From a virus, in the UHGV virus genome UHGV-0176771: a stretch of 64,000 nucleotides of DNA. One strand, given 5' to 3'. Position numbers and translations under genes: made by a program. The notes under the pieces are model-generated. The model did no database searches. It saw nothing but the letters and a program-made list of their open reading frames with translations, and had not been told where the DNA came from. How positions within the stretch are numbered: the stretch's first letter is position 1; the number at the start of each line of letters is the position of its first letter. Shown piece by piece: positions 13,901 to 61,936 of this stretch.

Positions 13901-14868
13901 ATGGTATTTTGTAGAGTTTTAATTTTGTCTTCATATTCCTCGATTTGAGCAACTGTGCCTTCGTAATTATCCTGCAGACCTTCTCCAATCTTAACATTAG
14001 CAGATAGCATCTGCGCGTCATATAAACTCTTCAGACTTGCTGCAGCAGAATCTGCATTGCTACCAAGATTAAGAATAGCATTTCCTTGTGCGTCATAACC
14101 TTCTACGAGAGATGGGAACTGTGACGCTAACTGATTACTAATATCCAGATACTGTTGATATTCCTCAGAAGACAGTCCTTTGTTTTTATTCGTTACAGTA
14201 TCTACATTCTTGCTTAATTCACTGTATTTCTTTGCGACATTCTCTATCGCATCACCTGTCGTTTCAATATCATCTGCATTATCTGCAAATGACTGACCAA
14301 GTGTGTCCAGAGTATTCTTGCCTTTAGAGAACTCAGCAAATGTCTCATCGATAGAGCTTTTCGCTTCTTTTCCTTTGGCAATCATTTTTTCTTGACGATG
14401 AATGTAGTCATCAATCATAGTAATAACGCCTTGAATCGCTACACCGGCAAGCATACCGATACCTGCGTTTAAAAGACTTGAACCGATCATTCCTCCTACG
14501 TTTTTAAGAGTAGAAGTTACTTTACCAAATTTTGATGTGGATTTAGAAGCTGACTCGATATGCGTATCCATATCTTTAATGTTCTTCTTCCCAGAATCAA
14601 CGTCACCTAAAAATGTAATAAGTTCTTTGTCTGCGTATCCCATAGATTTTGCCCAATCAACCCATTTCTCAGGTTGATTATCGCCTAATCCTGAAATAAC
14701 TTTATTTGCTTTTAAAAACTCTTCACTTATTTGTGGAGTTTTATTTTTGTATGCATCAAATAAGCTGAACCCAGTATCCTTATCATAGTTGAAAACCGTA
14801 TAGTTTTGATGTACACTTATATTAAATACTTGCAATATTTTATATAAGGAAGAAAAATATGAGTTCAA
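7948..14868 (-). CDS. Tail tape measure protein, giant (2306 aa): N-terminal hydrophobic segment, long coiled coils, C-terminal Ig-like (BIG2-type) and SH3b-like domains
   Basis: Position immediately upstream of Dit/Tal. Coiled-coil-rich. [44 protein letters not shown] Ig-like segment; [13 protein letters not shown]3b-like. Annotated start is a TTG overlapping a divergent gene, so the true start is uncertain. Confidence 0.65.
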
Positions 14869-35966: not shown

Positions 35967-37718
35967 CTAAAATGATATAGAAGAAATACATGGGGTAAAA
36001 TTTGAAAAATCTGAAGAATAGGAGTCTGTGTTAAGATTTTTTTCTAATGTTCTTAATATGTGATAATTATATCCCAAAGAACTATATCTATCTTTTCTCA
36101 TACCAGATTTTTCCTTTATTTTAATGTTTGTTCCTTCTATCTTATGCTGTAAATTTATGAGTTCATATATCAGCAATGTTGTTTGAATATATGGTGTTTT
36201 ATATTTTAACTGTTCAAAAGATTGCATCTTTGAATATGACTTAATCTTGTCTCTTAATATTTCCTCTGCTTCAAATTCTGATACAAGAAGATTGATCTTC
36301 CCATTTTGTATTCCTGCACGAAGCATAACACACATCTCGTTATTAAAAGCAGCATTGGCTTTTATCGACCATATACACGGATTTGCCGATTCGACTTTAC
36401 ATCTTTCTGCCATGTCTTTATCATTACAACAAGTAAGAGCTTTATATACATCACCTGTTTCTTGATCTAACTGATTCTTTATAATAAAATCATATACACC
36501 TAAACCAGCTCCATTTGTATCAATTACCAAATCTGTACATTTATACCTATAGAACAATCTCATGACAATAATTCCTAATTCATCAGTTGTAAGTCCTTCA
36601 TGATTTTCTAAGAATACAATATTCGAAATGTACTCATTACTTTCTGTTGGAAGAGCACTATTAATTAAAATTGAACTTGCATCATTATTCTTTGATTTAC
36701 TAGAACCCATTAATGCAATATCTACAGACATAATTCTTTTTTCATTAAGGGCTAAGTCTGGTATTTTTTTATTTTTGAAAAAATGTGTCTCCATCGGTGT
36801 TTTTATTTTTCTACATTTAGATAAATCATCAAATGTAAAAAACGAACCGTCTGTATCACCAAACCATAAACATCCCATCTCCATATCAAAAGATGTTTGA
36901 TCAAAGTCTTGCTCAGAAAATTCATCTTCAACCTGTTCTTTTGATAATAAATTTTCTTTGATTGCTATTTGATACGGTAGTCCGCAAATAAAATATTTTT
37001 TACTATTATCTAAAAAATTTACGACATATGCTTTCGCTTTTTCAAATGACCAATGAGATTTATACCATGCGCTGGACATAAATATTTCTTTATTACGCTC
37101 AGTTAGATGAGAATATTTTTTTATATTTAAATATCCTGGGGTACGCGGAGCTGTTAAGAATTTTCTAAGAACAGTATTAATGACATTTAAATCAACCATA
37201 CGAAATTCGTCTACAATTAGAATATTTGCACGTGCGCCTCGTCCACTGTCAGATGCAGTTACAACCCTTATCCATGACCCATTTTTAAATTCAATCACTG
37301 CATTATTCGCACCAACTGATTTGTACCCTATTTCATTATTTAAATTATCTGAACCCCATCCATAGTTTTTACAAAAATCATCGGTTATTTTCAAAAGGAC
37401 TTGATTCGCCTGTGGTCTTGTTGAAGAAGCAATACATATCTTGCTTCCCGGGAATAATATGCAACGAACGACGCAGAATAGAGCAGTAAGCCATGTTTTA
37501 CCCTGACCACGACTTGCAATATACATAAAATAATTATTGCACATCATTGCATATAGCAATATCTTTTGAAATAATTTGAGAGTTATATTTAAATAATCTT
37601 TACAAAAACGTTGTGGATTTTTTCTGTAAAAAGCTGCCCAGTAAGCAACACCGTTCATTAACCTTTCAGCTTTCTCATTTGCAACTTCTTGTTCTGTCAT
37701 TTTTCTCGATGTAGCCAT
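35967..37718 (-). CDS. terL: Terminase large subunit
   Basis: Walker A-like GQGKTW; Walker B-like ILIVDEF. C-terminal nuclease-like region. 583 aa. Confidence 0.7.
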   Translation of the reverse strand: MATSRKMTEQEVANEKAERLMNGVAYWAAFYRKNPQRFCKDYLNITLKLFQKILLYAMMCNNYFMYIASRGQGKTWLTALFCVVRCILFPGSKICIASSTRPQANQVLLKITDDFCKNYGWGSDNLNNEIGYKSVGANNAVIEFKNGSWIRVVTASDSGRGARANILIVDEFRMVDLNVINTVLRKFLTAPRTPGYLNIKKYSHLTERNKEIFMSSAWYKSHWSFEKAKAYVVNFLDNSKKYFICGLPYQIAIKENLLSKEQVEDEFSEQDFDQTSFDMEMGCLWFGDTDGSFFTFDDLSKCRKIKTPMETHFFKNKKIPDLALNEKRIMSVDIALMGSSKSKNNDASSILINSALPTESNEYISNIVFLENHEGLTTDELGIIVMRLFYRYKCTDLVIDTNGAGLGVYDFIIKNQLDQETGDVYKALTCCNDKDMAERCKVESANPCIWSIKANAAFNNEMCVMLRAGIQNGKINLLVSEFEAEEILRDKIKSYSKMQSFEQLKYKTPYIQTTLLIYELINLQHKIEGTNIKIKEKSGMRKDRYSSLGYNYHILRTLEKNLNTDSYSSDFSNFTPCISSISF

Positions 37719-39994: not shown

Positions 39995-40471
39995 TTAATC
40001 TCTTAAATCGATTTCTGTCAATTCCACATAGTCATCTTCGTGTGTGATTCGTAGATAATCACTTCCTTGAATTAATTTTCCATCATGCTTTTTTACAATA
40101 TCTCTCATATAGTCAAATGGATGAATATGTGGAACTACCTTTTTATAATCTAAAAAAGTAATATCATAGTTATCATCCATATGTATATATACACATTTAA
40201 TTGTGGGTATGATCGAATATTTATTTTGAAAATTTTCTATATCACACAGAAAATTTGTATTCCGTTCATCTAAGATTTTTGACTCCAAATCATGAACGTC
40301 AATTGCAATCATTTTCACATATCCTGTTTTAACTAGTCTTTCCATAGCTATGCATACCTCCGGTGCTGTGATTTTCAGAAACAGTATAACATAGAATGAA
40401 AGAGTAGTGAGCTGGTAAATTATGGAATTAGAGTTAAACAAATGCATCATCAGCATCATCAGAATCTTCAC
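39995..40471 (-). CDS. Hypothetical protein (start likely internal, MERLVKTGY...)
   Basis: ORF; overlaps the integrase 5' end by 38 nt as annotated. Confidence 0.35.
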   Translation of the reverse strand: MKILMMLMMHLFNSNSIIYQLTTLSFYVILFLKITAPEVCIAMERLVKTGYVKMIAIDVHDLESKILDERNTNFLCDIENFQNKYSIIPTIKCVYIHMDDNYDITFLDYKKVVPHIHPFDYMRDIVKKHDGKLIQGSDYLRITHEDDYVELTEIDLRD

Positions 40472-41552
40472 GAATTACATATATTTGGGTAGTTTCGCTT
40501 GATTCATGCCCCAATAATTTCTGAGCTGTTTCAAGTGGGCGATGATTATACACAACTAAATTAGTTGCCCTACTTCTTCGGAGTCCGTGTGGAGTAAGCC
40601 TCTGTCCAACAATTTCTGAAAATTCATTAATGCACCAATCATTGAACACACCTTCACTTACTTGTCTTGTTTCACCATTTTTTTGTTTAATTACAAACAT
40701 ATAAGGACAATCGTCTTCTCCACGAACTTCAATCCATTTTTTTAAAGCAACCATCACATCTTCGCCAAACTGAAGCTTTCTGATTTTCCCAGCTTTACTT
40801 CGTCCTTTACATCTAATATCATGAGTTTTATATGAGACAGATTCTACTTCTTGCTCTACTCCATTTTCATCGATTATTTTTACCATTTTTCTTTTTGGCT
40901 CATAATTGATTACCTCTTTTAGCAACTGCCTAGATTCCGCGCGGCGGCAGCCTGTGGAATATGTATATTTTACGTAAGCTAATTTTTGCCACTCCTCACG
41001 TTTTTCTAATTCATTACATAGATAATCAATTTGCTCAGGAGTCAAAGGCTCTTTTGAAAATACTTTTCCTGTTTTTGGAACCTGCATTTCCGCAGTTACA
41101 AAATTACGAAAAGTTGGATATTCATCCTCATAAAAATTTTCGATAAATTTATTCATAGCACTAACAGCAGATTTTTTAAATTTAATTCCGGATTCAGAAA
41201 AGCCTCTATTTGCAAGCCAATTCATATATCTAAGAAACTCTTTCTTTTTAATATCTATGCACTTTTTATCTCGTAAATTATTTTTCACCCAAAGAAAAAA
41301 TATTCTTAAGGCTGATTTGTACGCATTTATGCTTTTAGGTGAAAGATGTGTTTGATTGTTAAGATAATCATCAACCATTTCCCTGTTAAATTCATTTACT
41401 GTTAACCAAATTTCATCTGTAATATCTTCTGATCTATTTGCTATCTTTTCATTCAAAACATCACTTCCTTTTTGAAAAACTATATTTTGGAGTTTCTTAC
41501 GATTTTCGTCAGGAGATTCCTGCTTTACAAATCCATAACCTACTATCTCCAT
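40434..41552 (-). CDS. int: Tyrosine recombinase / phage integrase
   Basis: C-terminal catalytic region RLTPHGLRRSRATNLV...LLGHESSETTQIYV (R..H-R-Y pattern). 372 aa. Confidence 0.8.
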   Translation of the reverse strand: MEIVGYGFVKQESPDENRKKLQNIVFQKGSDVLNEKIANRSEDITDEIWLTVNEFNREMVDDYLNNQTHLSPKSINAYKSALRIFFLWVKNNLRDKKCIDIKKKEFLRYMNWLANRGFSESGIKFKKSAVSAMNKFIENFYEDEYPTFRNFVTAEMQVPKTGKVFSKEPLTPEQIDYLCNELEKREEWQKLAYVKYTYSTGCRRAESRQLLKEVINYEPKRKMVKIIDENGVEQEVESVSYKTHDIRCKGRSKAGKIRKLQFGEDVMVALKKWIEVRGEDDCPYMFVIKQKNGETRQVSEGVFNDWCINEFSEIVGQRLTPHGLRRSRATNLVVYNHRPLETAQKLLGHESSETTQIYVIREDSDDADDAFV

Positions 41553-45046: not shown

Positions 45047-46246
45047 TTAATGAAATTTAACATCATATACACAATCTAATCCGTTGTCAGTAATAACAGA
45101 AATCAATTGCTCTGGTTTATTCTGCAATCGATTATCCAGACAATAGTTATCTGTTCCAGAAATACAACCTGATTGTAAAATTTTCACATTATAAACAGTA
45201 GACATCGCATTTACATGACGATGACCCATATATAAAATATCTGGACGTATTTGTGTCATAAGCGATAGTTTCTGCACAACCGTTTTAGGGTCATCTTTAT
45301 CTCCATGCACCGCAAAAATCTTTGTTCCTCTAACAGAAAACATTGCAATTGATTCATCAATTTTATTTTCGTGAAATTCGATATTCTTAAAGTTCTGCAA
45401 TTTGGCTTGCAAAAATGGAATAGCGAGACAGTCCATGTTCTCACCTTTTAAAGATTCTTCCTTTTTCGCATGCAACCTAGAATGATTTCCAGGACAAACA
45501 TAAACATGAACTTCATTAAATTTATAACTAAGTTCAGATAAAAATTGTGAAATACAATCCGATACGGATAAGAACTGCTCAATTAGATTTTGATTACTTT
45601 CAATACGAAGTGAGTTGTGAATTAATCCTGAAATCAGTTCACTTAGAATTACATGAATATTTTCTGATCCATGTCGCAAATAAACTTCAAAAATTTTGTC
45701 CAGATATTGTCTAAATCTGTCATACATAACATCTGTATTGTATTTATTGAACCAATTATTAATTTCTATTCCGGCGTGAATATCAGTCACAGAAATCACC
45801 ATGTCATTATTTGAATTTAAAATTCCTGTGAACTGCTTATATTTATCATAATACAGAGGCTGACCATGATATTCTGAAATCGCTCTCAAAATTTGTTCTT
45901 TATAAGATTCTTTTCGAGCCTCCTCACGAATTAATCTACGATATTCATTTCGTTCATCGCGTGTCTTGACACGTTCTTTTTCCAAAAGAATTCGTTCTTC
46001 TTTTAGTTCTTGCAACTGTGCAGCACTGTCTGTAAATTTTGACTGGTTTGCATCAAGAACCTTTTGAAAATACTGAACTTTTTTTCTGTAAGCAGATTCA
46101 GTGTAATTACAGTTAAGAAGATCGTTTAGAACCGCAGCAACATCATTCCATGTGCCGATATTTTCTTTATCATTACAGATTCTAAGAATTAACTCATCGT
46201 CACTTTCACCATCAAATCTTTTATAGTTATGTACTATAATGTCCAC
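45047..46246 (-). CDS. Calcineurin-like metallophosphoesterase with N-terminal coiled-coil region (399 aa)
   Basis: Motifs VTDIHAG, CPGNHS, AVHGDKDD, MGHRH. Confidence 0.65.
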   Translation of the reverse strand: MDIIVHNYKRFDGESDDELILRICNDKENIGTWNDVAAVLNDLLNCNYTESAYRKKVQYFQKVLDANQSKFTDSAAQLQELKEERILLEKERVKTRDERNEYRRLIREEARKESYKEQILRAISEYHGQPLYYDKYKQFTGILNSNNDMVISVTDIHAGIEINNWFNKYNTDVMYDRFRQYLDKIFEVYLRHGSENIHVILSELISGLIHNSLRIESNQNLIEQFLSVSDCISQFLSELSYKFNEVHVYVCPGNHSRLHAKKEESLKGENMDCLAIPFLQAKLQNFKNIEFHENKIDESIAMFSVRGTKIFAVHGDKDDPKTVVQKLSLMTQIRPDILYMGHRHVNAMSTVYNVKILQSGCISGTDNYCLDNRLQNKPEQLISVITDNGLDCVYDVKFH

Positions 46247-46782: not shown

Positions 46783-48033
46783 CTAATCCAATAAATCTGC
46801 CATTGCAGCTGTTTCGCTACGTTCTGTTTTTGATAACTGTACATATCCGAAATTTTTATGTCCTGCTAATTTCTGAACAGCTGATAATAGTCCATTATTC
46901 ATTCTATAAAGTGCATTATCAGTTTGTTTGAAATCACCATTCAGCCACAAAGAGGATCCATTTCCAATACGACCTATTAGTAATTGTACATGTTCTTTTG
47001 TCAAATTTTCTGCTTCGCTACAATATACGATTGCATTTTTCAAGTCGCGTCCTCTAATATAACCCAGATGTTCAATTTCAATATTTCCTGCCATGATTTG
47101 CATATCTAAACCAGTTTCTCCTCCCAAATGATCAGCAAGAGGCATCGCATATGGACGTAACTTCTCATCTTTTGAACCTGGTAGAAACCCGATCGCACTT
47201 GAATCTTTAACATCTACAGCGTTTCTAATGTAAATTAACTTATCAAATTTTCCCTCTTCGATAAGTTTTAATGCATTTGCAATCATTATCATATCTTTGC
47301 CTGTCCCAAATTTTCCTGAGATAACTTTAATTGTTTGCTCTTTGTTCTGCAACATATCAAAAGCAAGAACTTGTTGTGGATTAAGTGGTTTAACCTTTCC
47401 CATAAATGCAGAATTAATTTGTTTATATGAGACAGCCTTATATTCATTTCCGTCCCACTTTCTATAATCAACAACTTCTCCGTCTGATTTTTTAATAATG
47501 AGATATTCGTTCAAAATACAATCATAAATGTTTTCATTTGTATGACAATAGAAGTAACTCATTTCTTCATCAGACAATGTTAATTCTTTATATCCAAGAT
47601 ATTCGTCAAGATTTTTGACAAGGTTAATATCCGAAACTCCCTTTGTAGGAAGTTCAAAAATATTACGAGATATGAATTTACAATTTAAGTCATCAGAACA
47701 TACAAGTACTTTTGACACATTTAAATTGTAATAATAAGCAGAAGCTAAAATTATGTTGTCTGGTGTTTCAGATAAAAAATAACTATCAATTATATCTTTG
47801 ATTTTTGGAGAATATAAAACTACTTCATATTCACCATCATTCTTATCCAATAGTCTTGAAATTTGTCTGGCTTTATATTTTATTTCTCCATCTTTAGAGT
47901 TAGACACTTTGATATTTTCAATCTCTTCAAGTGTCTTTTGTGCAATAATAAATTTTTCTTTAAATGCATTTTCGCCGAGATTGAGTAATGCATTTGTGTC
48001 AAGGAATAATTTGTATTCCAATAAGGAAACCAC
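46783..48033 (-). CDS. PIN-domain + PhoH-like ATPase (YlaK-like), 416 aa
   Basis: N-terminal LFLDTNALLNL (PIN). GKFGTGKD P-loop-like. IGFLPGSKDEKLRPYAMPLADHL PhoH block. SEAENLT (DEAQN-like). Confidence 0.65.
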   Translation of the reverse strand: MVSLLEYKLFLDTNALLNLGENAFKEKFIIAQKTLEEIENIKVSNSKDGEIKYKARQISRLLDKNDGEYEVVLYSPKIKDIIDSYFLSETPDNIILASAYYYNLNVSKVLVCSDDLNCKFISRNIFELPTKGVSDINLVKNLDEYLGYKELTLSDEEMSYFYCHTNENIYDCILNEYLIIKKSDGEVVDYRKWDGNEYKAVSYKQINSAFMGKVKPLNPQQVLAFDMLQNKEQTIKVISGKFGTGKDMIMIANALKLIEEGKFDKLIYIRNAVDVKDSSAIGFLPGSKDEKLRPYAMPLADHLGGETGLDMQIMAGNIEIEHLGYIRGRDLKNAIVYCSEAENLTKEHVQLLIGRIGNGSSLWLNGDFKQTDNALYRMNNGLLSAVQKLAGHKNFGYVQLSKTERSETAAMADLLD

Positions 48034-48311: not shown

Positions 48312-48384
48312 TGCAGAGCCTGGGAGTCGAACCCAGTATTTTCAGATTATGGATCTGATGTGATAATCCGTTTCACTCGCCTGC
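48312..48384 (-). tRNA. Degenerate tRNA-like element (CAU-type anticodon loop with C33, bulged acceptor stem), possible tRNA pseudogene
   Basis: Perfect T-arm CTGGG-TTCGACT-CCCAG. Anticodon arm TCAGA-TCCATAA-TCTGA. D-arm GTGA/TCAC with GG loop. Acceptor pairs only with a 1-nt bulge. Confidence 0.35.
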
Positions 48385-48564: not shown

Positions 48565-48637
48565 TAAGGTGAAACAGCCCGTAGTTGATTCGAACAACTG
48601 AAATGCAGGAGTCAAAGTCCTGTGCCTTACCGCTTGG
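48565..48637 (-). tRNA. tRNA-Gln (anticodon UUG)
   Basis: Acceptor AGCCCGT/ACGGGCT perfect 7 bp. Anticodon arm CAGGA-CTTTGAC-TCCTG. T-arm AGTTG-TTCGAAT-CAACT. Confidence 0.6.
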
Positions 48638-49365
48638 CGAACGGGCTAAAATACTCCTAAGATGTTAGCAACAGCACTACCAGAACAGCAATGCTATTAC
48701 TAACTGAAAAGGAGATTAGAAATCGTCAAGTGCGCGCATAAGCACTTGATTATAAATACAAATGGAACTTCTTCCTACTCAAACATATTGTCATAATGTT
48801 CTGCCACTACTTACAAAGGGCTGAGAATAAGGGAGCTACCCTTAGACTTCCTTTGCATCTGGAAACAGTAATTGTAGTCTCGACTGGTTACGAGAAACTT
48901 TCACCCAGGTCATTCAGCAATTAACCATTTTTTATACTTGTTCTATTATCTATCTGTAATATGTATTCTTTTTCTTTTCTCACGTCACTTTGGGCTACTC
49001 GTACATTCGACAGATCTTATACTGGGATTTCTCCCGATCAACGACGCAACTGACTTATTTGGATTTCCGCTACTTATCTCTCTGTAACATTCCACCGATA
49101 CAGGCATCACGATTATTACTCCACTGGAGTCGTCTATTATGTCAGCGATCTGGCAATTGCGTTTTACGGCAATATATTATTGTACATATATTTAGTTTTG
49201 ACAGTTTCCGTCTTTCTGTTTATGATTCACATCATTCCAGAAACTGCAGTATAAAACTATCGCATTATACCGTAACTCACTATTCATATATTCTCAGCAT
49301 GGTGACAAACCAATCTGCACTGAGTTATTTGTATTTATAAGCAAGTGCTTATATTATCTACATAT

Positions 49366-49431: not shown

Positions 49432-50193
49432 TTACATGTTGTTTTCTCTATACTTTTTCACTCTAATTCTTGTTTTTTCTTTTGTAATTTCTTTTTGACA
49501 CTCATTACAATAGTTCATATTGTTGCTATTCTTTTTGAATAATTTCCCGCATAGTTTACACCTTTCAAATTTTCCTTCCCCAACAAAATTTAAATACTCA
49601 TATCCTAATTCACGAAAATCGGTTATTTTTAAAGCAGTTTCACCAGTTTTATTAACAAAATTTACTTTTAGATTCAGGTTGTCATTTTTATTTGAAAAAG
49701 AGATTAGTCCCAATTGTTCCAAATCGTTCAAATATAAAAATTTATCATTCCTATGTTTTACATGTACTCTAGAAATTTTATATATTTCTTTTATATCCGT
49801 ATTAATCCATCCATTATTTGTTTCAGATAATGTGTTGTATAATTTCGCGAAACATAACATTACAAATAAAAGCTTTCTATATTTCGTAGTGTTAACTCTT
49901 GAAATTGTGTCTAATTCAGATTGAAATATTTCAATACATTCTATTTCTCTCAATGGATATTTGTGTGCTTTATTTACAGTATTTTCAATAACATCTTCCC
50001 ATAAAGCAGCATTATAATTTTTATAATGTTTGCCCATAAAATCATTTAATTTACAAATAGTGTCTTGTTTATTTAAATTTACTTTTTGTCTATAATACCT
50101 AGATAATAGAAATAGGGTAGAAGTTGGCTTGTTGCCAACCTCCCCTTCAGAAATAAGTCTTTCTGCTTCTTTTGTCTCATTTAGTACAACCAT
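49432..50193 (-). CDS. Hypothetical protein with C-terminal Zn-ribbon (253 aa)
   Basis: CKLCGK...CNECQK. 13-nt overlap with the upstream RNAP-like gene. Confidence 0.45.
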   Translation of the reverse strand: MVVLNETKEAERLISEGEVGNKPTSTLFLLSRYYRQKVNLNKQDTICKLNDFMGKHYKNYNAALWEDVIENTVNKAHKYPLREIECIEIFQSELDTISRVNTTKYRKLLFVMLCFAKLYNTLSETNNGWINTDIKEIYKISRVHVKHRNDKFLYLNDLEQLGLISFSNKNDNLNLKVNFVNKTGETALKITDFRELGYEYLNFVGEGKFERCKLCGKLFKKNSNNMNYCNECQKEITKEKTRIRVKKYRENNM

Positions 50194-52955
50194 TCATCGT
50201 CCTCCTCGTCTTTAATACCCATATCAAATTTAATTTCTGTTGTTTCTAGTGAAAACTTTTTCCCTGCAAAATCAATATCGCCATTTATATCTTGCGTTGG
50301 ATAAGTAACCTTGTAATTATTCCTTTTAAGAAGATTTGAGATAATCATATCTCCACATATATCCCATGCAAATTGCTTGCTAGATTTACTTTTTGAATAA
50401 CATAGATCTAAAACAATATCGCATAAATATTCTTCATTGGGGCACTGTTCTAAGCACCGCCGTTTAAAATCTTCTTTTAATGTATATTTTTGAATCTGTC
50501 TTTCGTCTGATTTTATTCTTTCAGATTTTGCAAACTGCATATAGTTTGAAAGTTCTTTTTTATAACTTTCATAAATCTTTTTAATTTTATTAAACAACTG
50601 CTTAGAATAGACAACATTGCATTTCATAATAGAGTAGTCAAAATCAGAATCATTGACGTATCTTAAATCAGAAAATTTGTTTTCAATAGCCCAACATATT
50701 TTGTTAATAGTACAAGGAGACATTCCTAAAGGCATTCTTTTGTAATAACATTGTATAAATTTCTCCTCATCAAGTGTCAAAGTTTCTTTTTCTAAAAGCT
50801 CATCAAGTGTGATTCTAAACTTCATAATACATTTTTCATTATTACGCTTAATATACTCTAACATCTTTGTTTTTTCTGCAGGATAAATGTATTGCATAAA
50901 ATACGGTTTTTTATCTGCAACAAGTTTTCTATTCATCCAGTATTTTTTCTTCTCAGAAGAACTCTTTCCGTTTGAAATTTTATTTGCAATCCAATTATAC
51001 CACTCACTCGGCATAGGTTTTGACTCAATGCCCTTGGTTTTGTCGATCGAGTTCTGCTGGTATAATTGTCCACATTTAATGCGGTAATCTAGGATTCTAT
51101 ATTCACGACTATCTTTTGGGAAATTTGCTTGAACTTCAAACATGGATGTAATTTTATTTGTAACGGCACCAACTGCATTTCCAAAACTATTGATGTTAGA
51201 CTTCATGATATCGTCTTCTGTGGGAATACATTTTGGTGCTTTCCGCTGTACACATACCACCGCTGGTAATTCTTGTGTTTTTTTAACAAGCAGCGGGAGA
51301 GAAGTATTGATTACACAGTCGCCATCCTTATCGAAGCCGTTCATAGCATCTGCACATGTATCCCAACTATTGAATATTGTTGGCGTTGTCATATATTTAT
51401 AGAACTCGTCCATCTTTTCGTTATGAACCACATTTAGTTTTCTAATATTATTATGAGAGGTCATTGGCGCTCTAAAACTTACAATTTTATCAACCCCTTT
51501 ATCAATCCAATATTTAGAATAAATTTCTCCGGATTTTAATAACCCTGTTACCTTTAAACCAAACATTGATTGACATAATGAATACGGATCACCAGACACT
51601 AAAGAATAATTTGCAGGAACATTTAAAACACCAACCTTGGCATCGTCAATTCTTTTTTTGATCATAGAATAAATTTGTGATTTGACAAATGGATCATTTT
51701 TCATTTCTGGTTCAATCATTAAAGCTGTAGAAAATGAATTATCTAAATTCTGAATGGTATTACTATTCAAACCAACACCTTTTGTATACAAAATTGTTTT
51801 TCTGTAATCATCCGATAGAATATCTTGAATTTCCGTAACAGTTGGCTCAATAAGTTCTTCAATTTCACCATCACTAAAATCATAACTTTGAAGAAATTGA
51901 TAATTCATCGTTCTAATATTTTCTAATTCTTTCTCAGAAGTTTTTGTAATAGCAAAACTATAATGATTTTTTTCACAATTGTCTAAGTAGTCTTCAATAG
52001 AAGAGTAGGAGTCCCATAATTTTAACATTGATTCTGTTAATACAAGTTCTATATCACTTACATTATAAGAATTACCCCAAACATCTGTGATAGTTTCTAT
52101 GTTGTGATCATAAGCAAACTTTTGAAAATCAATTGGGAAAATCGCTCCTTTACAAAATGAATTTCTTATTACACATCCTGGTAATAAAAAATCTTCGCCA
52201 ATTTCTTCGCCCCATCTTTTCATAAGTTCCGGCATAGCTAATCCATATCCGTCGCTGTCGTTTAATTCCATTTCTTTATCTTTTATATATTTCATACTTG
52301 GTTCTTCAAGATCTGTATCGTCTAATTCAATTATATCGGATTTAAAATGTGTAATACAATCATGCACAACAACGATTCCATTTGGATATGAGACAGGGGC
52401 AGAAGAACTACAGACTAAAGCATTATATGCTTCTAATTTGGCTGGAGAAAATTCTTTTGACATATTTCTTCCATTATCAATTCTTCTTTTTAATTCTGGT
52501 AATAATTTTTCGTTTACAAAAACAATTGTATTATTTTTAACTCCACCAGTAGTTCCAAGTAATCGTCTGTATGTAATTTTATTTATTTTAAAACCGTGTT
52601 TGTACATTTTGTAATAGTCTTTATTATTATCTATAACAACACATACATAATCTTTTTTAAATTGATAAGCATCTAATTCTTCATACAGTTTTTTAATTTT
52701 TGGTCTTGATACAGATAAATTCTTTTCATATTTCAAATTTTTAATTTTAGATTTTATATCTGAAATATGTAATTCAGGATTTGTTATTCCATTCAATTCA
52801 TCTATAAATCTCATCATTTGACTTTCGCTTAATGCAATTAATTCCTTGTTTTCTCGTGCTTGTTTTATTGATAGCTGCAAATCCCATTTTGCTCTTCTAA
52901 GACGAGAAGAATGTATTTTAAAAACGTATCTTTGTGATGCTAAATGTTTACTCAA
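50181..52955 (-). CDS. YonO-like single-subunit RNA polymerase candidate, homologous to the multisubunit RNAP beta-prime double-psi beta-barrel (924 aa)
   Basis: IVSFRAPMTSHNNIRKLNV...NGFDKDGDCVINTSLP mirrors the beta-prime catalytic region VLLNRAPTLHRLGIQAF...NADFDGDQMAVHVP (RAPxxH plus the DxDGD aspartate triad). Confidence 0.55.
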   Translation of the reverse strand: MSKHLASQRYVFKIHSSRLRRAKWDLQLSIKQARENKELIALSESQMMRFIDELNGITNPELHISDIKSKIKNLKYEKNLSVSRPKIKKLYEELDAYQFKKDYVCVVIDNNKDYYKMYKHGFKINKITYRRLLGTTGGVKNNTIVFVNEKLLPELKRRIDNGRNMSKEFSPAKLEAYNALVCSSSAPVSYPNGIVVVHDCITHFKSDIIELDDTDLEEPSMKYIKDKEMELNDSDGYGLAMPELMKRWGEEIGEDFLLPGCVIRNSFCKGAIFPIDFQKFAYDHNIETITDVWGNSYNVSDIELVLTESMLKLWDSYSSIEDYLDNCEKNHYSFAITKTSEKELENIRTMNYQFLQSYDFSDGEIEELIEPTVTEIQDILSDDYRKTILYTKGVGLNSNTIQNLDNSFSTALMIEPEMKNDPFVKSQIYSMIKKRIDDAKVGVLNVPANYSLVSGDPYSLCQSMFGLKVTGLLKSGEIYSKYWIDKGVDKIVSFRAPMTSHNNIRKLNVVHNEKMDEFYKYMTTPTIFNSWDTCADAMNGFDKDGDCVINTSLPLLVKKTQELPAVVCVQRKAPKCIPTEDDIMKSNINSFGNAVGAVTNKITSMFEVQANFPKDSREYRILDYRIKCGQLYQQNSIDKTKGIESKPMPSEWYNWIANKISNGKSSSEKKKYWMNRKLVADKKPYFMQYIYPAEKTKMLEYIKRNNEKCIMKFRITLDELLEKETLTLDEEKFIQCYYKRMPLGMSPCTINKICWAIENKFSDLRYVNDSDFDYSIMKCNVVYSKQLFNKIKKIYESYKKELSNYMQFAKSERIKSDERQIQKYTLKEDFKRRCLEQCPNEEYLCDIVLDLCYSKSKSSKQFAWDICGDMIISNLLKRNNYKVTYPTQDINGDIDFAGKKFSLETTEIKFDMGIKDEEDDEWLY

Positions 52956-53059: not shown

Positions 53060-54320
53060 TTTACAAGGTGAACTACCAACGAGCTAAAGCTCGATTGGTT
53101 TCCTAGTCAATATATCTAATGATACAAGTTTACCTAGGCTATCCTCGTAGTTCCTACGATTTTATTTTCGTTATATATTCTCAAACCTTCATTGAGAATA
53201 TTTATTGCTGCATTTATATCTCTTTCATGATGTGTTCCACAAACAGGGCAGGTCCATTCTCTGACTGATAATGTTTTCTTTCCATCTTTGTGTCCACAAT
53301 TAGAACAGATCTGACTGGATGGAAACCATGTGTTAATCTTAACAATTTCTCGCCCATACCAATCGGCCTTGTATTCTAATTGTCTTACAAATTCACTCCA
53401 TGATACATCAGCAATTGATTTTGCTAATTTATGATTACTCATCATATTTTTTACTTTAAGACTTTCTAAAGCTATGACTTGATTTTCGTTAATAATTTTC
53501 TTAGACAACTTATGTAAAAAATCTTTTCTTTGATTTGTAATCTTTTCATGCTGTTTTGCGACTTTAATTCTGCATTTTTCTCTGTTCTTACTTCCTTGCT
53601 TACAACGTGATAAATCCTTTTGTAACTTTCTTAACCTTTTTTCAGATTTTCTAAGATATTTTTGGTTTTGAATCATTTCACCAGCAGAAGTAATAGCAAA
53701 TTCTTTGATTCCAAGATCAATACCAATTTTATTATTAGATTGTGGTAATTTTTCTTGCTCTTTACAATTCACTAAAACTGAAACATAATATTTACCACTT
53801 GGAGTTTTAGAAACCGTAACAGATTTAATAACCCCTTCAAAATCTCTATGTCTCTTCACTTTGACTAATCCAATCTTAGGAAGTTTGATATATCTATCAG
53901 TTACATAAATATTTCCACCTTGATTATTAGTAGTATAAGAGTAATAATTATTCTTTTTACTTTTGAATTTAGGGGAACCCACTTCCGGTCTTTTGAAGAA
54001 ATTATTATATGCAGTTTGTAAATTCATCTGTGCATTTGCTAAAGCAAGAGAATCTACATCTTTTAACCAAGGAAATTCTTTTTTATACTGAGCAGGTGTA
54101 TTATTAAGTTTCTGTTTTGTTTCTTTATAATGCTCAATCTTATCTGAAAGCATACGATTATAGATGAACCGTACACATCCAAAACATTTTGCAAAATATT
54201 CTTGTTGTTCTTTATTAGGATATAATCTATACTTATACGCTTTTAACATCTATAATCACTTCCTTTTAGTTATATATTCTCCGTTATTCATCCCGTCAGC
54301 TAAAGCTAATAGGATTTATG
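53060..54320 (-). mobile_element. IS200/IS605-family element, TnpB-only (IS1341-like), with subterminal hairpins
   Basis: tnpB ORF plus imperfect palindromes CGAGCTAAAGCTCG (53080-53093) and AGCTAAAGCT (54298-54307) near either end. No tnpA seen. Confidence 0.5.
53134..54249 (-). CDS. tnpB: TnpB (IS605 OrfB family, RuvC-like RNA-guided nuclease)
   Basis: [16 protein letters not shown]-terminus. C-terminal CSNCGH...[18 protein letters not shown] zinc-finger/RuvC-III block. Confidence 0.85.
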
Positions 54321-54358
54321 ACTAATTTTTTTAAATAACGAAGACCTCACTTTCAAAT

Positions 54359-55034: not shown

Positions 55035-56912
55035 TTATTCACCACTTATTTTTTCGTTTTTTATGATTTTAATTGTGTCTTCAATATCTTTAATAAAAGA
55101 ACTTATCAATTTTGTTTGACCATTATATAAATCAACATATGATAGATATAATTCTTTTTCTGCTCTTGTAATTGCGACATAGAATAGCCTACGTTCATCA
55201 TCAACATTTTCATTCTTATAGTGTGGCAGAATCTCTTCATTGCATCCAATGATAAACACGACAGGATATTCCATGCCTTTTGACTTATGAATTGTAAGTA
55301 ATTTGACCTTATCATTATCTTTATTTTCAATTTCCGTATTTAACTCATCTATGTATGAAACAAATTCTTTAATAGAAGAGTATTTAGAACAAATATTTTC
55401 AAAACTATTAAGGTTGTCGATTTGTTCAATATAACTTCCATCATCTGATTGTTTCCCTTTTGTAACAAATTTATCAATGCTTAATCTATTTCTCAAAAAT
55501 CTTACTAAATCTGAAATGTTAGAATTCTGATTGTTTTGTAAATAATTTATTACTTCAATAATTTCATCGATCCCTTTTTTAAATCTCCAATTTCTCCTGT
55601 CAATCGTAAACATTGAATTGTATAATGATATATTTTTTTTAAAACTGTTATCTGTTACTTCTTTTAAAAATTTTTTATCTAGCCATCGATTTGGTTTATT
55701 GTATATATAAGAAAATGATTCATTATCATTTGTGTTTAACGCAAGTTTAAAGTAAGAAATTATCAATTTGATTTCTGGTAATTCTGTAAAAGTTTTACCA
55801 TCGACAATTTCAAATGCTATATCTTCATCATGCAACGTTGACTCTAGTTTTTGTAATTGAGCATTTGTTCTGGCAAGGATAGCGATGTCGTTGTAATCGT
55901 ATCCTTTAAATTTTAATTCTCCTATTTTTGATGCAACCCATAAACATTCTTCATAATCATCAGAAAAATGTCTTAACTCAGGAATTTGAAAATTTCCTTT
56001 ATATGAAATACTCTCTACGTAATTTTTGTGTTGAGAATCAGGAATGCTTAACGCAAGTTTATTTGCTGTAGATACAATATCTTTGCTACATCTATAATTT
56101 GTATTTAGATTAATAACTTTTACATCTTTATAATCAGTATCAAAATTTAGAATAAATCTGCTATCACCACCTCTAAATGAATAAATAGCTTGAAGAGGAT
56201 CACCAACGATCATTGTATTTTTTGTGTTCAATTTTCTTAAAAGTAATGCTTGAGAAATTGAAATATCCTGAAATTCATCAACTAATATATACTGAAAAAT
56301 ATTTCGATACTTTTCTAAAGTATAATAATCAGTATCAAAAATTTTATTTGCCATGTTCAAAAAATCATCAAACTCAATAAGTGAATTGATTTCTTTATAC
56401 TTTTCATAAGTTTTGTATATTTGTCTCATATCCTCTTCTTTAAATGGGATATCAGGAGTGTAAATTAAATCATCATTTGGCATTTTCATGTTATTTTTCT
56501 GCAATGCAATAAACGATGTAATTTCGTTGTATGGAACATTATCAGAATCACAAAGTAACAAAGAGTCGCTACAAATCCATTTTATTGTTTTCTCTTTTTC
56601 CCATGAAGCTGTCCATATTTTAAATTTTTTGATTCCATACACAGAGGAGATGATCTTCAATGCAAATGAATGAAAAGTTTCTACATATACATTCGATATA
56701 TTAAGACCCATTAGTTTTTCGATTATATTCTCTTTTGCTTTTTTACTAAAGGTAATTGCCAGGATAGAAGATGGTAATATATTATGTTCTTCAACCATTT
56801 TTTTGATTCTATTCGTAAGAACAGTTGTTTTCCCGGAACCGGCAGATGCAATAACTGCCACGTTTCCTTCTATTGTGTTAATAGTTTCTTCTTGTTGTTT
56901 ATTAAAATTCAT
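55035..56912 (-). CDS. UvrD/PcrA/Rep-like SF1 helicase (625 aa)
   Basis: Walker A ASAGSGKTTVL, VDEFQD (motif II), TIHKSKGMEYPVVF (motif VI-like). Confidence 0.8.
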   Translation of the reverse strand: MNFNKQQEETINTIEGNVAVIASAGSGKTTVLTNRIKKMVEEHNILPSSILAITFSKKAKENIIEKLMGLNISNVYVETFHSFALKIISSVYGIKKFKIWTASWEKEKTIKWICSDSLLLCDSDNVPYNEITSFIALQKNNMKMPNDDLIYTPDIPFKEEDMRQIYKTYEKYKEINSLIEFDDFLNMANKIFDTDYYTLEKYRNIFQYILVDEFQDISISQALLLRKLNTKNTMIVGDPLQAIYSFRGGDSRFILNFDTDYKDVKVINLNTNYRCSKDIVSTANKLALSIPDSQHKNYVESISYKGNFQIPELRHFSDDYEECLWVASKIGELKFKGYDYNDIAILARTNAQLQKLESTLHDEDIAFEIVDGKTFTELPEIKLIISYFKLALNTNDNESFSYIYNKPNRWLDKKFLKEVTDNSFKKNISLYNSMFTIDRRNWRFKKGIDEIIEVINYLQNNQNSNISDLVRFLRNRLSIDKFVTKGKQSDDGSYIEQIDNLNSFENICSKYSSIKEFVSYIDELNTEIENKDNDKVKLLTIHKSKGMEYPVVFIIGCNEEILPHYKNENVDDERRLFYVAITRAEKELYLSYVDLYNGQTKLISSFIKDIEDTIKIIKNEKISGE

Positions 56913-56916
56913 ATAT

Positions 56917-58023
56917 CTATTTTTTTCCTTTCTTTGATGATGTGATTTTTAAGGTATAATTATCGTCAATTGTTTTTTCTCTTATTCTGTTTCCAAGATA
57001 TTCTGTATTTTTATCAATCGTTATTTCGCATAAATTTTGAAAACATAAGCTGTAGTCATTCTTTTCGGCATAAGAAAAATATTTATCCGGATTTTTATCA
57101 AATCTTTTTTCTGCATTTCCAACCAACAAATCTGTAAACTCTTTATTGAATTCACTTATTAAATTATTCATTTTGAATTTACCAAACTGTTTTAATATAA
57201 AATTACATTTATTAAGATCTACATAATATGCTTCATATGTTTTGAAAACACATTTGATTTTCTTTTTATATAGTTCTTTCTTTAATACTTCTCCAAATAA
57301 TTTTGATTTTTTACTATAATATCGTTCTCCAGCATTTTCTATTTTTGCTGCTTTATCAGCAATTGAAACACAATGAGAGTAGTAGTTCATTTCATCTTCA
57401 GATGCTTGATGACTATCAATAGAAATATCAACGTGTATATTCCCACTTTCATCAATAATATTTTTACCGCTTGATATTTCTTCGTTTACTCTATAAACTT
57501 CTCTCCAGATAACTAATCCTGCAGATTTTAAATAATCAAGTGCATTTGTTATGTACCATTCAATCATGTCGTCTGCTTTGTCATAAAATTCATTAATGGT
57601 ATCAAGAGAGCATTGTGTTTCTTTACTAGTGTCTTCTTTGTTGTATTTAACAAGGTTGTAATTTTTGTTTACCATATTTATTTCTCTAGCCCATTTACCG
57701 ACAGTAATATCAATTTTATTATTCTCATCGTGACCATTAATCAGATTGGTAAGTAATAGTGGTACAATATATTGATACAAGGATTTTGTCATCTTATTGA
57801 AATTTGATGGGAGAGGATAGTCATATACTTTTGTGATTCTATATGTTCTGTCACCTAAATCTTCAATGTTACAATATCGAGACATTTTTGTAAGTAAAGT
57901 CTTTTTATAGTTACCAATGAATCTACCATATTCTTTATAAGATTTTTTTTGTGCATCACTTCCGTATAAATCTACTAACTTTTTTTCTGAAATTTTTCCT
58001 TTTTTGATATTTAATTTGTTCAT
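56917..58023 (-). CDS. Hypothetical protein (368 aa) co-transcribed with the UvrD-like helicase (4-nt spacing)
   Basis: ORF. Basic N-terminus, no recognisable catalytic motif. Confidence 0.45.
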   Translation of the reverse strand: MNKLNIKKGKISEKKLVDLYGSDAQKKSYKEYGRFIGNYKKTLLTKMSRYCNIEDLGDRTYRITKVYDYPLPSNFNKMTKSLYQYIVPLLLTNLINGHDENNKIDITVGKWAREINMVNKNYNLVKYNKEDTSKETQCSLDTINEFYDKADDMIEWYITNALDYLKSAGLVIWREVYRVNEEISSGKNIIDESGNIHVDISIDSHQASEDEMNYYSHCVSIADKAAKIENAGERYYSKKSKLFGEVLKKELYKKKIKCVFKTYEAYYVDLNKCNFILKQFGKFKMNNLISEFNKEFTDLLVGNAEKRFDKNPDKYFSYAEKNDYSLCFQNLCEITIDKNTEYLGNRIREKTIDDNYTLKITSSKKGKK

Positions 58024-58081: not shown

Positions 58082-58104
58082 CCCAGTGTTTATAAGGGTT
58101 TACA
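58082..58104. repeat. Copy B of the 23-bp motif CCCAGTGTTTATAAGGGTTTACA
   Basis: Identical to the copy at 58182-58204, exactly 100 bp away. Confidence 0.6.
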
Positions 58105-58126
58105 GAGTTTTCGCATCATTCCATTT

Positions 58127-58154
58127 CTCCCTAATATATATATAATATAGGGAG
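58127..58154. promoter_or_regulatory. AT-rich perfect-armed palindrome CTCCCTAATATATATATAATATAGGGAG between the two identical 23-bp repeats
   Basis: 7-bp arms CTCCCTA/TAGGGAG around an (AT)n core. Sits 100-130 bp upstream of the 368-aa/helicase operon. Confidence 0.45.
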
Positions 58155-58181
58155 ACTTTGAATGATGTTTTTCGTCACAAA

Positions 58182-58204
58182 CCCAGTGTTTATAAGGGTT
58201 TACA
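58182..58204. repeat. Copy C of the 23-bp motif CCCAGTGTTTATAAGGGTTTACA
   Basis: Identical to copy B. Confidence 0.6.
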
Positions 58205-58721
58205 AGGATTTTAGTTGAAAAAAATTATCTCTTTTATCCATAAAATAGTACGCAAAGGGGGTCTGGGGGAAATGCAAAAAAGATCATAATTCATTTAGTC
58301 GCACTAGCTGGTTGTGAGCCTTGGCGAACAAGCTGCGTAGTAAGACTTATGAATTTGGTCTTCTTTCCCCCAGTTAATAATTCTCTCTTTATAAATAATT
58401 TTTATATAAATTTGTAATTACTTATATATAGAGAGATCTAGGTAATATTGGATCCACTTCAGAAAGAGCCGCAAGCGACCCTTTCTTCGTGTCTCCGTTT
58501 CACTTTGCTTCGCAAAGTCTTTGCTGACGCAAAGATACAATTTAAATTGAAATAGAAAAAAATTTTTTATAATTTCTTCATATCGTTTCTCTTTTTATTA
58601 AAAATATTTTAACGGCTTCTTTATTTCATACATTTATTCTCTTATCAATATAAAAATATCTGTGAAAACTTACACTGTTGTGTTATTATATAAATATCAA
58701 AAGAAGTAGGAGAGTAGCGCT

Positions 58722-60406: not shown

Positions 60407-61936
60407 ATGGAAGGAGTTATTGTCGTGAATAGGACATATATTGCAATTGATTTGAAAAGCTTTTATGCATCAGTAGAGTGTATAGAACGTGGACTTGATC
60501 CACTGACAACAAATCTAGTTGTTGCTGATAATAGCAGAACAGATAAAACAATTTGTCTTGCAGTAACTCCGTCTTTAAAATCATATGGTGTATCCGGAAG
60601 ACCAAGATTATTTGAAGTAGTACAACGTGTAAGAGAAATCAATGCTACAAGATTGTATAACTTAAGAAAACGTGAATTCTCTGGTTTCTCCTATAATAAG
60701 AAAGAATTGGATGATAATTTAAATCTAAAACTTGATTATATTGTAGCTCCTCCTAGAATGTCGTTTTACATGGAATACAGTACCAGAATCTATAATATTT
60801 ATTTAAAATATATTGCTCCAGAAGATATCCATGTATATTCTATTGATGAAGTGTTTATAGATGTAACTTCTTATTTAAATACGTATGGGTTATCTGCAAA
60901 AGAATTGGTACAGAAAATTATACTGGATGTGCTGCATGAAACGGGAATTACAGCAACCGCAGGTATTGGAACGAATTTGTATTTGGCTAAGATTGCTATG
61001 GATGTTGTAGCAAAGCATATTCCTGCTGATGAACACGGTGTAAGAATTGCAGAACTGGACGAAATATCTTACAGAAAACAATTGTGGGATCATAGACCGT
61101 TGACTGATTTTTGGCGTATTGGAAGAGGATATACAAAAAAGTTGGAATCTGTTGGGTTATATACAATGGGAGATATTGCAAGATGTTCTCTTGGAAAAGA
61201 GGAGGATTATTATAATGAGGACTTGCTGCGTAGAATGTTTGGCAAGAATACAGAACTTTTGATTGATCATGCTTGGGGATGGGAGCCTGTTACGATTGCA
61301 GATATTAAAGCATATAAGCCGGAGAGTAATAGTATTGGAAGTGGACAGGTTTTACACTGTGGAACTGATTTTGATAAAACGAAAATTATTGTGCGTGAAA
61401 TGACCGAGATATTGGTCTTAGATTTGGTTAGTAAAAATCTTGTAACGGATCAGATTGTATTAACGATTGGCTACGATAGAGAAAATCTATTAGATTCTTC
61501 CAGAATGAGTAAGTATAAGGGAGAGTTCTCTTTTGATCAATATGGGAGAAAAATTCCAAAACATGCTCATGGAACAGCAAATTTAGATAGTTATACGTCT
61601 TCTACTAGCGTGATTGTAAGAGCTGTGCTTGATTTGTTCAGTAGAATTGTAGACGAAAATTTACTTGTCAGAAGAATCAATATGTCTGCAAATCATGTGA
61701 TCAGCGAAAAGGAAGCGAAACAGGATAGATATGAACAGCTTAATTTATTTGATATGATTGCTGAAAAGGAAGATGCAGTAGACCAGGAACAACTTAAAAA
61801 AGAAAAAGATATTCAGAAAGCTATCTTGGATATCAAGAAAAAATTTGGGAAAAATGCAATTTTAAAAGGCATGAGTCTACAAGAAGGAGCTACTGCAATA
61901 GATAGGAATAATCAAATTGGTGGACATAAAGCATAG
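60407..61936 (+). CDS. Y-family (UmuC/DinB-like) translesion DNA polymerase
   Basis: IAIDLKSFYASVE and SIDEVFIDVT catalytic motifs. 509 aa. Confidence 0.85.
   Translation: MEGVIVVNRTYIAIDLKSFYASVECIERGLDPLTTNLVVADNSRTDKTICLAVTPSLKSYGVSGRPRLFEVVQRVREINATRLYNLRKREFSGFSYNKKELDDNLNLKLDYIVAPPRMSFYMEYSTRIYNIYLKYIAPEDIHVYSIDEVFIDVTSYLNTYGLSAKELVQKIILDVLHETGITATAGIGTNLYLAKIAMDVVAKHIPADEHGVRIAELDEISYRKQLWDHRPLTDFWRIGRGYTKKLESVGLYTMGDIARCSLGKEEDYYNEDLLRRMFGKNTELLIDHAWGWEPVTIADIKAYKPESNSIGSGQVLHCGTDFDKTKIIVREMTEILVLDLVSKNLVTDQIVLTIGYDRENLLDSSRMSKYKGEFSFDQYGRKIPKHAHGTANLDSYTSSTSVIVRAVLDLFSRIVDENLLVRRINMSANHVISEKEAKQDRYEQLNLFDMIAEKEDAVDQEQLKKEKDIQKAILDIKKKFGKNAILKGMSLQEGATAIDRNNQIGGHKA

Follow-up and report, generated by a model that had tools for sequence, protein, structure and literature searches.

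The question raised by this locus is what a virus gains from keeping a 368-amino-acid (aa) protein of no described family directly in front of a helicase gene. The two genes are located in a 64,000-nucleotide (nt) stretch of the UHGV virus genome UHGV-0176771 (hereafter the window; the coordinates of its features are collected in Table 1). An earlier note on this DNA had described them as a two-gene operon next to an IS605 element and had left two possibilities, a replication module or a defense system. Both open reading frames (ORFs) were confirmed, and their comparison across related loci revealed a conserved module made up of the 368-aa protein, the helicase, and a palindrome upstream of both genes. 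Neither the partner family nor its dedicated palindrome is described in the libraries and paper collections searched. We tentatively favor a reading in which the 368-aa protein acts as a palindrome-binding factor that loads the helicase or targets it to this site, probably at the start of phage replication. From the evidence presented below we infer the binding to the site, the physical interaction with the helicase, and the role in replication.

The two genes are separated by a 4-nt gap (TAG-ATAT-ATG), and the helicase gene is probably translationally coupled to the upstream 368-aa gene. Their pairing was assessed in 64 evaluable non-identical loci (denoted below by L numbers) with tblastn searches for a helicase start within 3 kb downstream of the family gene and on the same strand. 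Such a helicase was detected in 55 of the 64 loci, and its start was at most 60 nt away from the family gene in 48/64. Three additional loci carried divergent UvrD-type helicases (identified by Pfam or weak tblastn matches), which raised the paired loci to 58/64. The co-occurrence check proposed in the earlier note therefore came out in favor of a stable pair, kept down to about 27% partner identity, with L071, L078-L104, L108, L110, L111, and L114 retaining the helicase at 27-35%. Identities to the window copies were tightly correlated between partner and helicase (r = 0.94), as opposed to r = 0.30 between the partner and the YonO-like RNA polymerase gene of the same phages, a low value that derives from the mosaic exchange of the polymerase gene. 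Specifically, near-identical partner/helicase pairs were found in different phages together with YonO-like alleles that were just 21-25% identical, from which the mosaic replacement of the YonO-like gene was deduced. The two-gene operon is thus strongly supported by its junction, its conservation, and its co-variation.

The helicase by itself is ordinary. It was matched by the Pfam domains UvrD-helicase (E-value 4e-56) and UvrD_C (6e-52) and by phrog_1967, annotated as 'DNA helicase' (4.5e-114), while its top match in the PDB was PcrA (1pjr, 2e-73, helicase residues 2-593). In agreement with the Pfam and PcrA matches, motifs I (AGSGKTT), II (DEFQD), III (GDPLQAIYSFRG), V, and VI are evident from the translation, and motifs I-VI are intact, as had been claimed. 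Judged by its domains and motifs, the protein is assigned to the PcrA/UvrD/Rep family of superfamily 1A (SF1A) helicases. Its scores do not indicate an orthologue of cellular PcrA, Rep, or UvrD, being far under the NCBIfam cut-offs for the true members of these three groups (366 bits with the pcrA model versus an equivalog cut-off of 911). The helicase ends at residue 625 and was aligned to residues 11-620 of the 724 of PcrA. Since the alignment stops at PcrA residue 620, the helicase is devoid of the C-terminal ~100 residues of PcrA, the RNA-polymerase-binding domain. The binding of PcrA and UvrD to RNA polymerase via their C-terminal domain is described in PMC3797733.

The most divergent of the helicases paired with family members carry additional segments. 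The one in L110 (6299-8515) has a HINT (intein-like) insertion, and those of L111 (7162-8943) and L114 (7180-8949) have an N-terminal extension of ~100 residues similar to the CoiA_N zinc finger. An N6/N4 DNA methyltransferase gene recurs within ~1.5 kb downstream of the helicase in L005, L110, L111, and L114. In the window, the 3' end of the helicase ORF includes a sub-threshold match (55130-55226, minus strand; 35 bits versus a gathering score of 65) to Rfam RF03531, which is described as 'Clostridioides difficile sRNA included into helicase gene'; a C. difficile prophage helicase with a homologous coding sequence probably accounts for the match.

The 368-aa protein was matched by no model of Pfam, PADLOC, or NCBIfam, and Pfam likewise gave no match, Rep families included, among 92 diverse members of its family. 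Its sole match was phrog_36702 (E-value 2.7e-13), a group of uncharacterised function that was also matched by 45 of the 92 diverse members. The family comprises 440 clusters at 50% identity in an exhaustive profile search and 215 clusters at 90% identity in a word-indexed search, and the source-named members from the latter were all labelled 'hypothetical protein'. The contexts sampled were all phage. By tblastn, neither the window protein nor any of three distant members found a match among 50,697 GenBank phages, the window protein did not match any of 72,556 plasmids, and literature searches yielded nothing on the family or on its pairing with the helicase. Matches to rve/Mu transposase and GIY-YIG domains in longer family members look like gene-call or mobile-element artefacts and were rejected.

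Structural predictions with AlphaFold (AF2) reached a predicted local distance difference test score (pLDDT) of 83.8 and a predicted template-modeling score (pTM) of 0.75 for the full-length protein, and a pLDDT of 92.8 and a pTM of 0.83 for a core model of residues 72-345. PDB sequence profiles gave no match to the family, Foldseek searches of the PDB with both models gave no significant neighbor (best E-value 0.17-0.18, template-modeling score < 0.3), and a structure search of BFVD retrieved uncharacterised gut siphophage proteins only. By the order of their predicted secondary-structure elements, residues 9-66 resemble a winged helix and a second unit, which bears the conserved MVNxNY, resembles a helix-turn-helix, with a fold match found for neither of them; the model also has a long beta-hairpin and a helical C-terminal region. 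The conserved polar residues in the diverse family alignment consist mainly of K, R, and N and include one Glu, and aromatic residues are conserved as well. Each conserved Tyr becomes Phe or Trp in some members, and neither a conserved His nor an invariant acidic cluster was found. Since an invariant Tyr, His, or acidic cluster is missing, the protein is read as a non-catalytic nucleic-acid binder, and judging from these residues it probably binds DNA. This agrees with the earlier statement that the partner has no catalytic motif. In line with it, we found in the family no sign of rolling-circle initiators of the HUH Rep or Rep_trans type (catalytic Tyr, metal-binding His/acidic motif, or Pfam Rep match). 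Initiator families or folds (Rep_3, RepA_N, lambda O, DnaD-like), a family match of this kind being part of what the earlier note had regarded as speaking against its proposal, were detected by none of Pfam, NCBIfam, PDB sequence, and Foldseek searches, and Pfam and PHROG searches gave no match to terminase small subunits.

The third component of the module is the composite palindrome, which is the longest in the window and occurs there only once. On the gene strand it reads CATCATTC-AAAG-TCTCCCTA-(TA-rich 14 nt)-TAGGGAGA-AATG-GAATGATG, a layout in which the outer and inner arms are separated by an asymmetric, A-rich internal bubble and the center is (TA)n. Folded as a single-stranded DNA hairpin it reaches -12.3 kcal/mol (z = -5.2). 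The 22-nt core of the flanking direct repeat is exact at 58082-58103 and 58182-58203, 100 nt apart, and 0/100 shuffles gave such a match. The repeat/palindrome region noticed earlier is therefore real and beyond chance; what had been missed is that the palindrome itself belongs to the module as a conserved and covarying element. Among 16 aligned copies taken from 13 loci, 12 of the 13 palindrome pairs showed compensatory changes, and every lineage examined had this layout, with arms of differing sequence. A covariance model derived from the aligned copies was run over 911 kb of loci and recovered the palindrome only directly upstream of family genes, those of the distant subfamilies L108, L109, and L115 among them. 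It was also seen by eye in L071, L076, L078, L079, L090, L091, L098, L100, L106, and L111, and it stays with the family gene despite the presence of a same-strand gene upstream (L002-L004). Some lineages have two copies 110-146 nt apart, and others have one copy flanked by lineage-specific repeats, of other sequence and 100-119 nt apart in L034, L050/L054, and L032.

These patterns of sequence change point to a selected, module-specific site, whether it acts as a hairpin or cruciform or as a symmetric protein site. We consider the palindrome a candidate site of binding, melting, or cruciform formation and the direct repeats a candidate protein-binding site, either operator or iteron-like. The region has an origin-like anatomy, with repeats 100 nt apart around a palindrome whose (TA)n center is AT-rich and easily melted, beside the gene of the candidate binder. 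Two promoter readings were rejected. A late promoter used by the phage RNA polymerase and present in multiple copies is at odds with a palindrome that is single in 64 kb and confined to family genes in 911 kb, and a sigma-54 or clean sigma-A promoter upstream of the 368-aa gene fitted inconsistently across lineages, with no more scan sites than in shuffles. Further upstream, the GC-rich imperfect hairpin at 58263-58373 has 40 predicted pairs in 5 sequences, 2 of them with compensatory change, a low number because the sequences are too similar. It is possibly an accessory element, which could be a structured RNA or else a further inverted repeat in the DNA, and its membership in the module is uncertain. 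A second GC-rich, structured-looking segment lies at ~58440-58530 within the AT-rich intergenic region; neither of these two segments had an Rfam match. Other lineages have different GC-rich segments upstream, often with a GCCTACGGC hairpin motif.

According to the reading that we favor, the 368-aa protein would bind the palindrome and the repeats beside its own gene, stabilize either the melting of the (TA)n center or the extrusion of a cruciform, and recruit or activate the SF1A helicase at the palindrome. The helicase would need this partner because the C-terminal targeting domain of cellular PcrA is absent. The resulting unwinding would then start or support the replication of phage DNA, with the site acting as an origin or as the start of late, concatemer-forming replication. 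The linkage and co-variation of the two genes, the covarying cis element, the winged-helix-like partner, the truncated helicase, and the origin-like anatomy all support this reading, and partner proteins that direct helicases of the PcrA/UvrD family are described in PMC3797733. An initiator for the helicase, as the earlier note had put it, is consequently the better of its two alternatives, although the partner matched no known initiator family or fold.

Several points weigh against such a role. No sequence or fold similarity to a known initiator, helicase loader, or terminase subunit was found in the 368-aa protein, and no nicking signature either. SF1A helicases are not the usual replicative helicases at theta-type origins, and in the known initiator-directed cases their action follows a nick; in general, a nick or a 3' tail is what SF1A helicases normally require. 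The compensatory changes in the palindrome do not separate a hairpin or cruciform from a dimer-binding site, and a transcriptional operator would account just as well for a repeat-flanked palindrome that heads an operon. The pairing also has exceptions. In L031/L032 the helicase was replaced by a 277-aa ORF while the protein and the palindrome were kept, in L051 and L068 the helicase gene is interrupted by a TnpB element (at residue 449 or 371) but retains both of its halves, and among the weak, distant matches L061-L065, which sit in other phage contexts, L061-L063 have neither helicase nor palindrome. Finally, SPbeta-type phages are described as having separate replication genes in cluster II (bioRxiv 10.1101/2021.11.22.469490).

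An operator would be expected if the 368-aa protein were a transcription regulator (an autoregulator or activator) acting through the palindrome and repeats ahead of an early lytic operon of partner, helicase, and YonO-like gene, and the helicase a separate accessory replicative or anti-roadblock enzyme, co-inherited solely through the shared operon, which we regard as possible but rather unlikely. The palindrome has a promoter-like position between the TTGACA-containing region and the upstream sequence, the 368-aa gene heads an operon that includes the YonO-like gene in the window and in many relatives, and the protein persists in L031/L032 in spite of the loss of the helicase. In one distant subfamily, a ~250-aa gene with a tyrosine-recombinase fold (Pfam Phage_integrase) is located directly upstream of the palindrome and the partner on the same strand (L071, 345-1103), and the upstream regions of L079, L090, L091, L098, and L100 have the same arrangement. 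The master repressor of SPbeta is recombinase-like, and by analogy this gene hints at a lysis-lysogeny control point. Likewise, the SPbeta yonO gene is not transcribed by YonO (PMC5467207), so that host RNA polymerase and regulators must drive it. On the other hand, the coupling to the helicase over 4-60 nt survives very deep divergence while all other neighbors shuffle, the palindrome tracks the gene even when the latter is not the first in its operon (L002-L004), and the size of the protein (368 aa, with several domains and a novel core) exceeds what one would expect of a plain operator binder.

The direction of a PcrA/Rep-type helicase to a site by a mobile-element protein, as postulated in the helicase-loading reading, is known from rolling-circle plasmids, phiX174, and ICEBs1, and RepD-PcrA and gpA-Rep are cases of partner-directed helicases. 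In the pT181-family plasmids (PcrA with RepC/RepD), as in the proposed module, an SF1A helicase of the PcrA type depends on a site-specific partner encoded next to the origin, which contains an extrudable inverted repeat flanked by binding sites. However, RepC and RepD are Rep_trans nicking enzymes that have a catalytic tyrosine and use the host PcrA, whereas the partner in the window has no invariant Tyr and no Rep_trans/HUH match, the helicase is encoded by the phage, and the replicon is a phage of ~160 kb. In phiX174 (gpA-Rep) and ICEBs1 (HelP/NicK-PcrA) an accessory protein of the mobile element, which in the case of HelP is small (~126 aa), likewise targets or activates a Rep/PcrA-type helicase for the replication of the element itself. 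Both start from a nick made by an HUH enzyme, in contrast to the window pair, which has no adjacent nickase, and no similarity of the window module to gpA, HelP, or NicK was detected. In the lambda O/P-DnaB and SPP1 G38P/G39P/G40P modules, too, the origin binder is encoded beside or on top of repeats and an AT-rich stretch, with helicase functions following within one operon, but these modules load hexameric DnaB-type helicases, whereas here the helicase belongs to SF1A and the binder falls outside known initiator families and folds. A bolder and rather doubtful proposal is that the 368-aa family represents a new-fold class of phage initiators or helicase loaders, which would recognize a palindromic origin able to form a cruciform and would place a PcrA-type SF1A helicase on it with no need for nicking. 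If so, tailed phages would have a third route to the start of unwinding, next to the loading of DnaB-type helicases and the nick-dependent loading of Rep/PcrA, and such a loader class would be widespread in the abundant SPbeta-like phages of gut Firmicutes.

Among the closest described counterparts of the pair are those of the Bacillus phage phi3T (phi3T_72/73) and the Clostridium phage c-st (CST184/183), which encode an orthologous helicase (31-35% identity) with a partner gene abutting its start. In c-st, the orthologue (35% identity) adjoins TubZ/TubR and ParB-like maintenance genes of this plasmid-prophage, which counts in favor of helicase loading for replication. The phi3T orthologue lies in the early cluster II, where the annotated genes are said to indicate genome replication (bioRxiv 10.1101/2021.11.22.469490). 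The upstream partners of the two phages (phi3T_72, L008 5391-5993; CST184, L009 5403-5999) are homologous to each other (E-value 1e-10) and differ from the 368-aa protein in their length of ~200 aa, their coiled coil, and, in CST184, an ORF6C domain. Homology between them and the 368-aa family was considered and rejected on profile comparison probabilities of < 1%. By sequence comparison, the ~200-aa ORF6C proteins are thus a second, unrelated partner family of the same helicase clade. Since phi3T and c-st carry a different abutting partner, an upstream partner gene is a general trait of the clade. Similar to the window, c-st has an insertion sequence (IS) and a YonO homologue after the helicase.

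The defense alternative holds that the genes encode a defense, superinfection-exclusion, or counter-defense pair, with a sensor or effector and a UvrD-like helicase as in Gabija. It had been argued that pairs of a helicase and an unknown partner recur among defense systems, and indeed the helicase matched many GajB models of PADLOC (best E-value 1.5e-84), and methyltransferases, Bro-N genes, and insertion sequences occur in a variable region that directly follows the pair. Nevertheless, we consider this alternative very unlikely. The GajB matches reflect generic UvrD similarity, and phrog_1967 and PcrA models scored higher. Around the helicase, neither GajA (the OLD-family ATPase-TOPRIM nuclease of Gabija) nor any other PADLOC model was matched by the 368-aa protein and four other neighbors. 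The contrast with GajA drawn in the earlier note is borne out, as Pfam found neither an ATPase nor a TOPRIM domain in the partner. This partner carries no catalytic signature, belongs to a core pair with a fixed syntenic position and a dedicated cis element in this phage group, and was encountered only in phage contexts, with no plasmid match for the window protein. The defense branch therefore found no support. These results also call for caution with false positives, as phage pairs of UvrD and an unknown gene are matched by GajB profiles although they are not Gabija.

The window belongs to an SPbeta-like tailed phage or prophage of large size and low GC content. Related contigs are mostly 90-210 kb long, with a cluster near 160-170 kb, and were derived from gut metagenomes and from metagenome-assembled genomes of Clostridia or Eubacterium; relatives of the UHGV-0176771 phage recur in many human-gut metagenome assemblies. 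The SPbeta-like setting is evident from the YonO-type polymerase and, in relatives, from YonJ-like (YonJ_N) and HU-like (Bac_DNA_binding) genes further downstream. Nearly all genes are on the minus strand up to position 58023, where transcription diverges, and judging by gene order the pair occupies the position of yonP-yonO in SPbeta, at the head of the late arm.

Table 1. Features of the 64,000-nt window of UHGV-0176771
Feature	Position	Strand	Remarks
Composite palindrome	58114-58167	no strand	54 nt; 91-144 nt upstream of the ATG of the 368-aa ORF
Direct repeat, proximal copy	58082-58111	minus	22-30 nt; core GTAAACCCTTATAAACACTGGG, then TTGACA
Direct repeat, distal copy	58182-58211	minus	Other side of the palindrome
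GC-rich imperfect hairpin	58263-58373	minus	~108 nt; inverted repeat just upstream of the repeats; kept in close lineages
368-aa gene	56917-58023	minus	ORF; ATG start; AAGGAG ribosome-binding site
625-aa SF1A helicase gene	55035-56912	minus	PcrA/UvrD/Rep family; ORF, Pfam, PDB match
TnpB gene, IS200/IS605 family	53134-54249		Pfam HTH_OrfB_IS605, OrfB_IS605, zinc-ribbon TNB
YonO-like RNA polymerase gene	50181-52955	minus	924 aa; 44% identical to c-st CST179 (annotated YonO homologue)
PhoH-like gene	46783-48033	minus	
SbcD-like exonuclease gene	45047-46246	minus	
Tyrosine integrase gene	40434-41552	minus	Between the large terminase and YonO-like genes
Large terminase gene	35967-37718		~20 kb from the pair
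UmuC-type Y-family polymerase gene	60407-61936	plus	Divergent arm, as in SPbeta-type phages

This position bears on a further alternative, namely that the palindrome is a pac or genome-opening site and the 368-aa protein a pac-binding factor similar to small terminases. The opening point of SPbeta and its relatives is located in the intergenic region that heads the yonP-yonO late arm (bioRxiv 10.1101/2021.11.22.469490), which is syntenic with the region studied here, and the ends of several independent contigs fall 0-370 nt upstream of the family gene (L006, L007, L010, L038, L072-L077). The contig ends are weak evidence, however, because long palindromes break assemblies by themselves, and the opening region of phi3T, unlike the window, has no comparable palindrome. 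Moreover, the large terminase gene is ~20 kb away, a helicase role in pac recognition is not known, and similarity to terminase small subunits was absent from the 368-aa protein, all of which makes a packaging role quite improbable. A role of the pair in recombination or repair was also weighed, in which it would process hairpin or cruciform DNA or strip recombinase and roadblocks during recombination-dependent replication, with the palindrome being regulatory only. Helicases of the PcrA/UvrD type remove RecA and resolve replication-transcription conflicts (PMC7385302), and the window encodes a UmuC-like polymerase, an SbcD-like exonuclease, and a PhoH-like protein. Yet this would leave the dedicated, unique cis element tied to the partner gene unexplained, and the partner has no nuclease or recombinase signature; we thus consider it improbable.

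How SPbeta-like phages replicate and control their early genes is described in the literature as being largely dark matter (bioRxiv 10.1101/2021.11.22.469490), and the present analysis defines a compact and testable module composed of a cis site, a candidate binder, and a helicase. If the binder loads the SF1A helicase at the palindrome, it would represent a new class of partners for the targeting of PcrA/UvrD-type helicases, and the origin or control element could be useful for the engineering of phages of gut Clostridia.

As for the IS605-type element reported beside the pair, the element is real, with three TnpB domains, but its link to the pair is not. It forms a discrete insertion of 1275 bp (53068-54342) that begins ~690 nt past the helicase stop and encodes TnpB only, with no TnpA (Y1 transposase) within the insert. 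Because this insertion is absent from L010 and L055, whose flanking DNA is 96-97% identical, its adjacency to the pair is incidental and the insertion recent. TnpB elements nevertheless recur at or in the helicase gene of independent lineages (L051, 12458-14270; L068, 3574-5334), and phage c-st (L009, 8203-10165) has ISCbt2 right after its helicase. Group I introns, which would mark the TnpB insertions in helicase genes as IStrons, were not detected at Rfam gathering thresholds.

The YonO-like gene is intact in the window and carries an insertion of 1.1-2.3 kb after about residue 638 in L010 (4793-7828), L055, and L021; it is also disrupted in phi3T, where yonO is split, and in c-st, which keeps the N-terminal part only. 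Downstream of the YonO-like gene and of a 253-aa zinc-finger gene we identified a full-length ROOL RNA (48745-49348, minus strand; Rfam RF03087, 325 bits versus a gathering score of 99), which adjoins two transfer RNA genes on the same strand (48312-48384 and 48575-48647). The longest ORF in the window by far encodes 2306 aa (7948-14868), and a drum RNA was detected just downstream of it (7625-7735, minus strand; RF02958, 64.7 bits versus a gathering score of 43).

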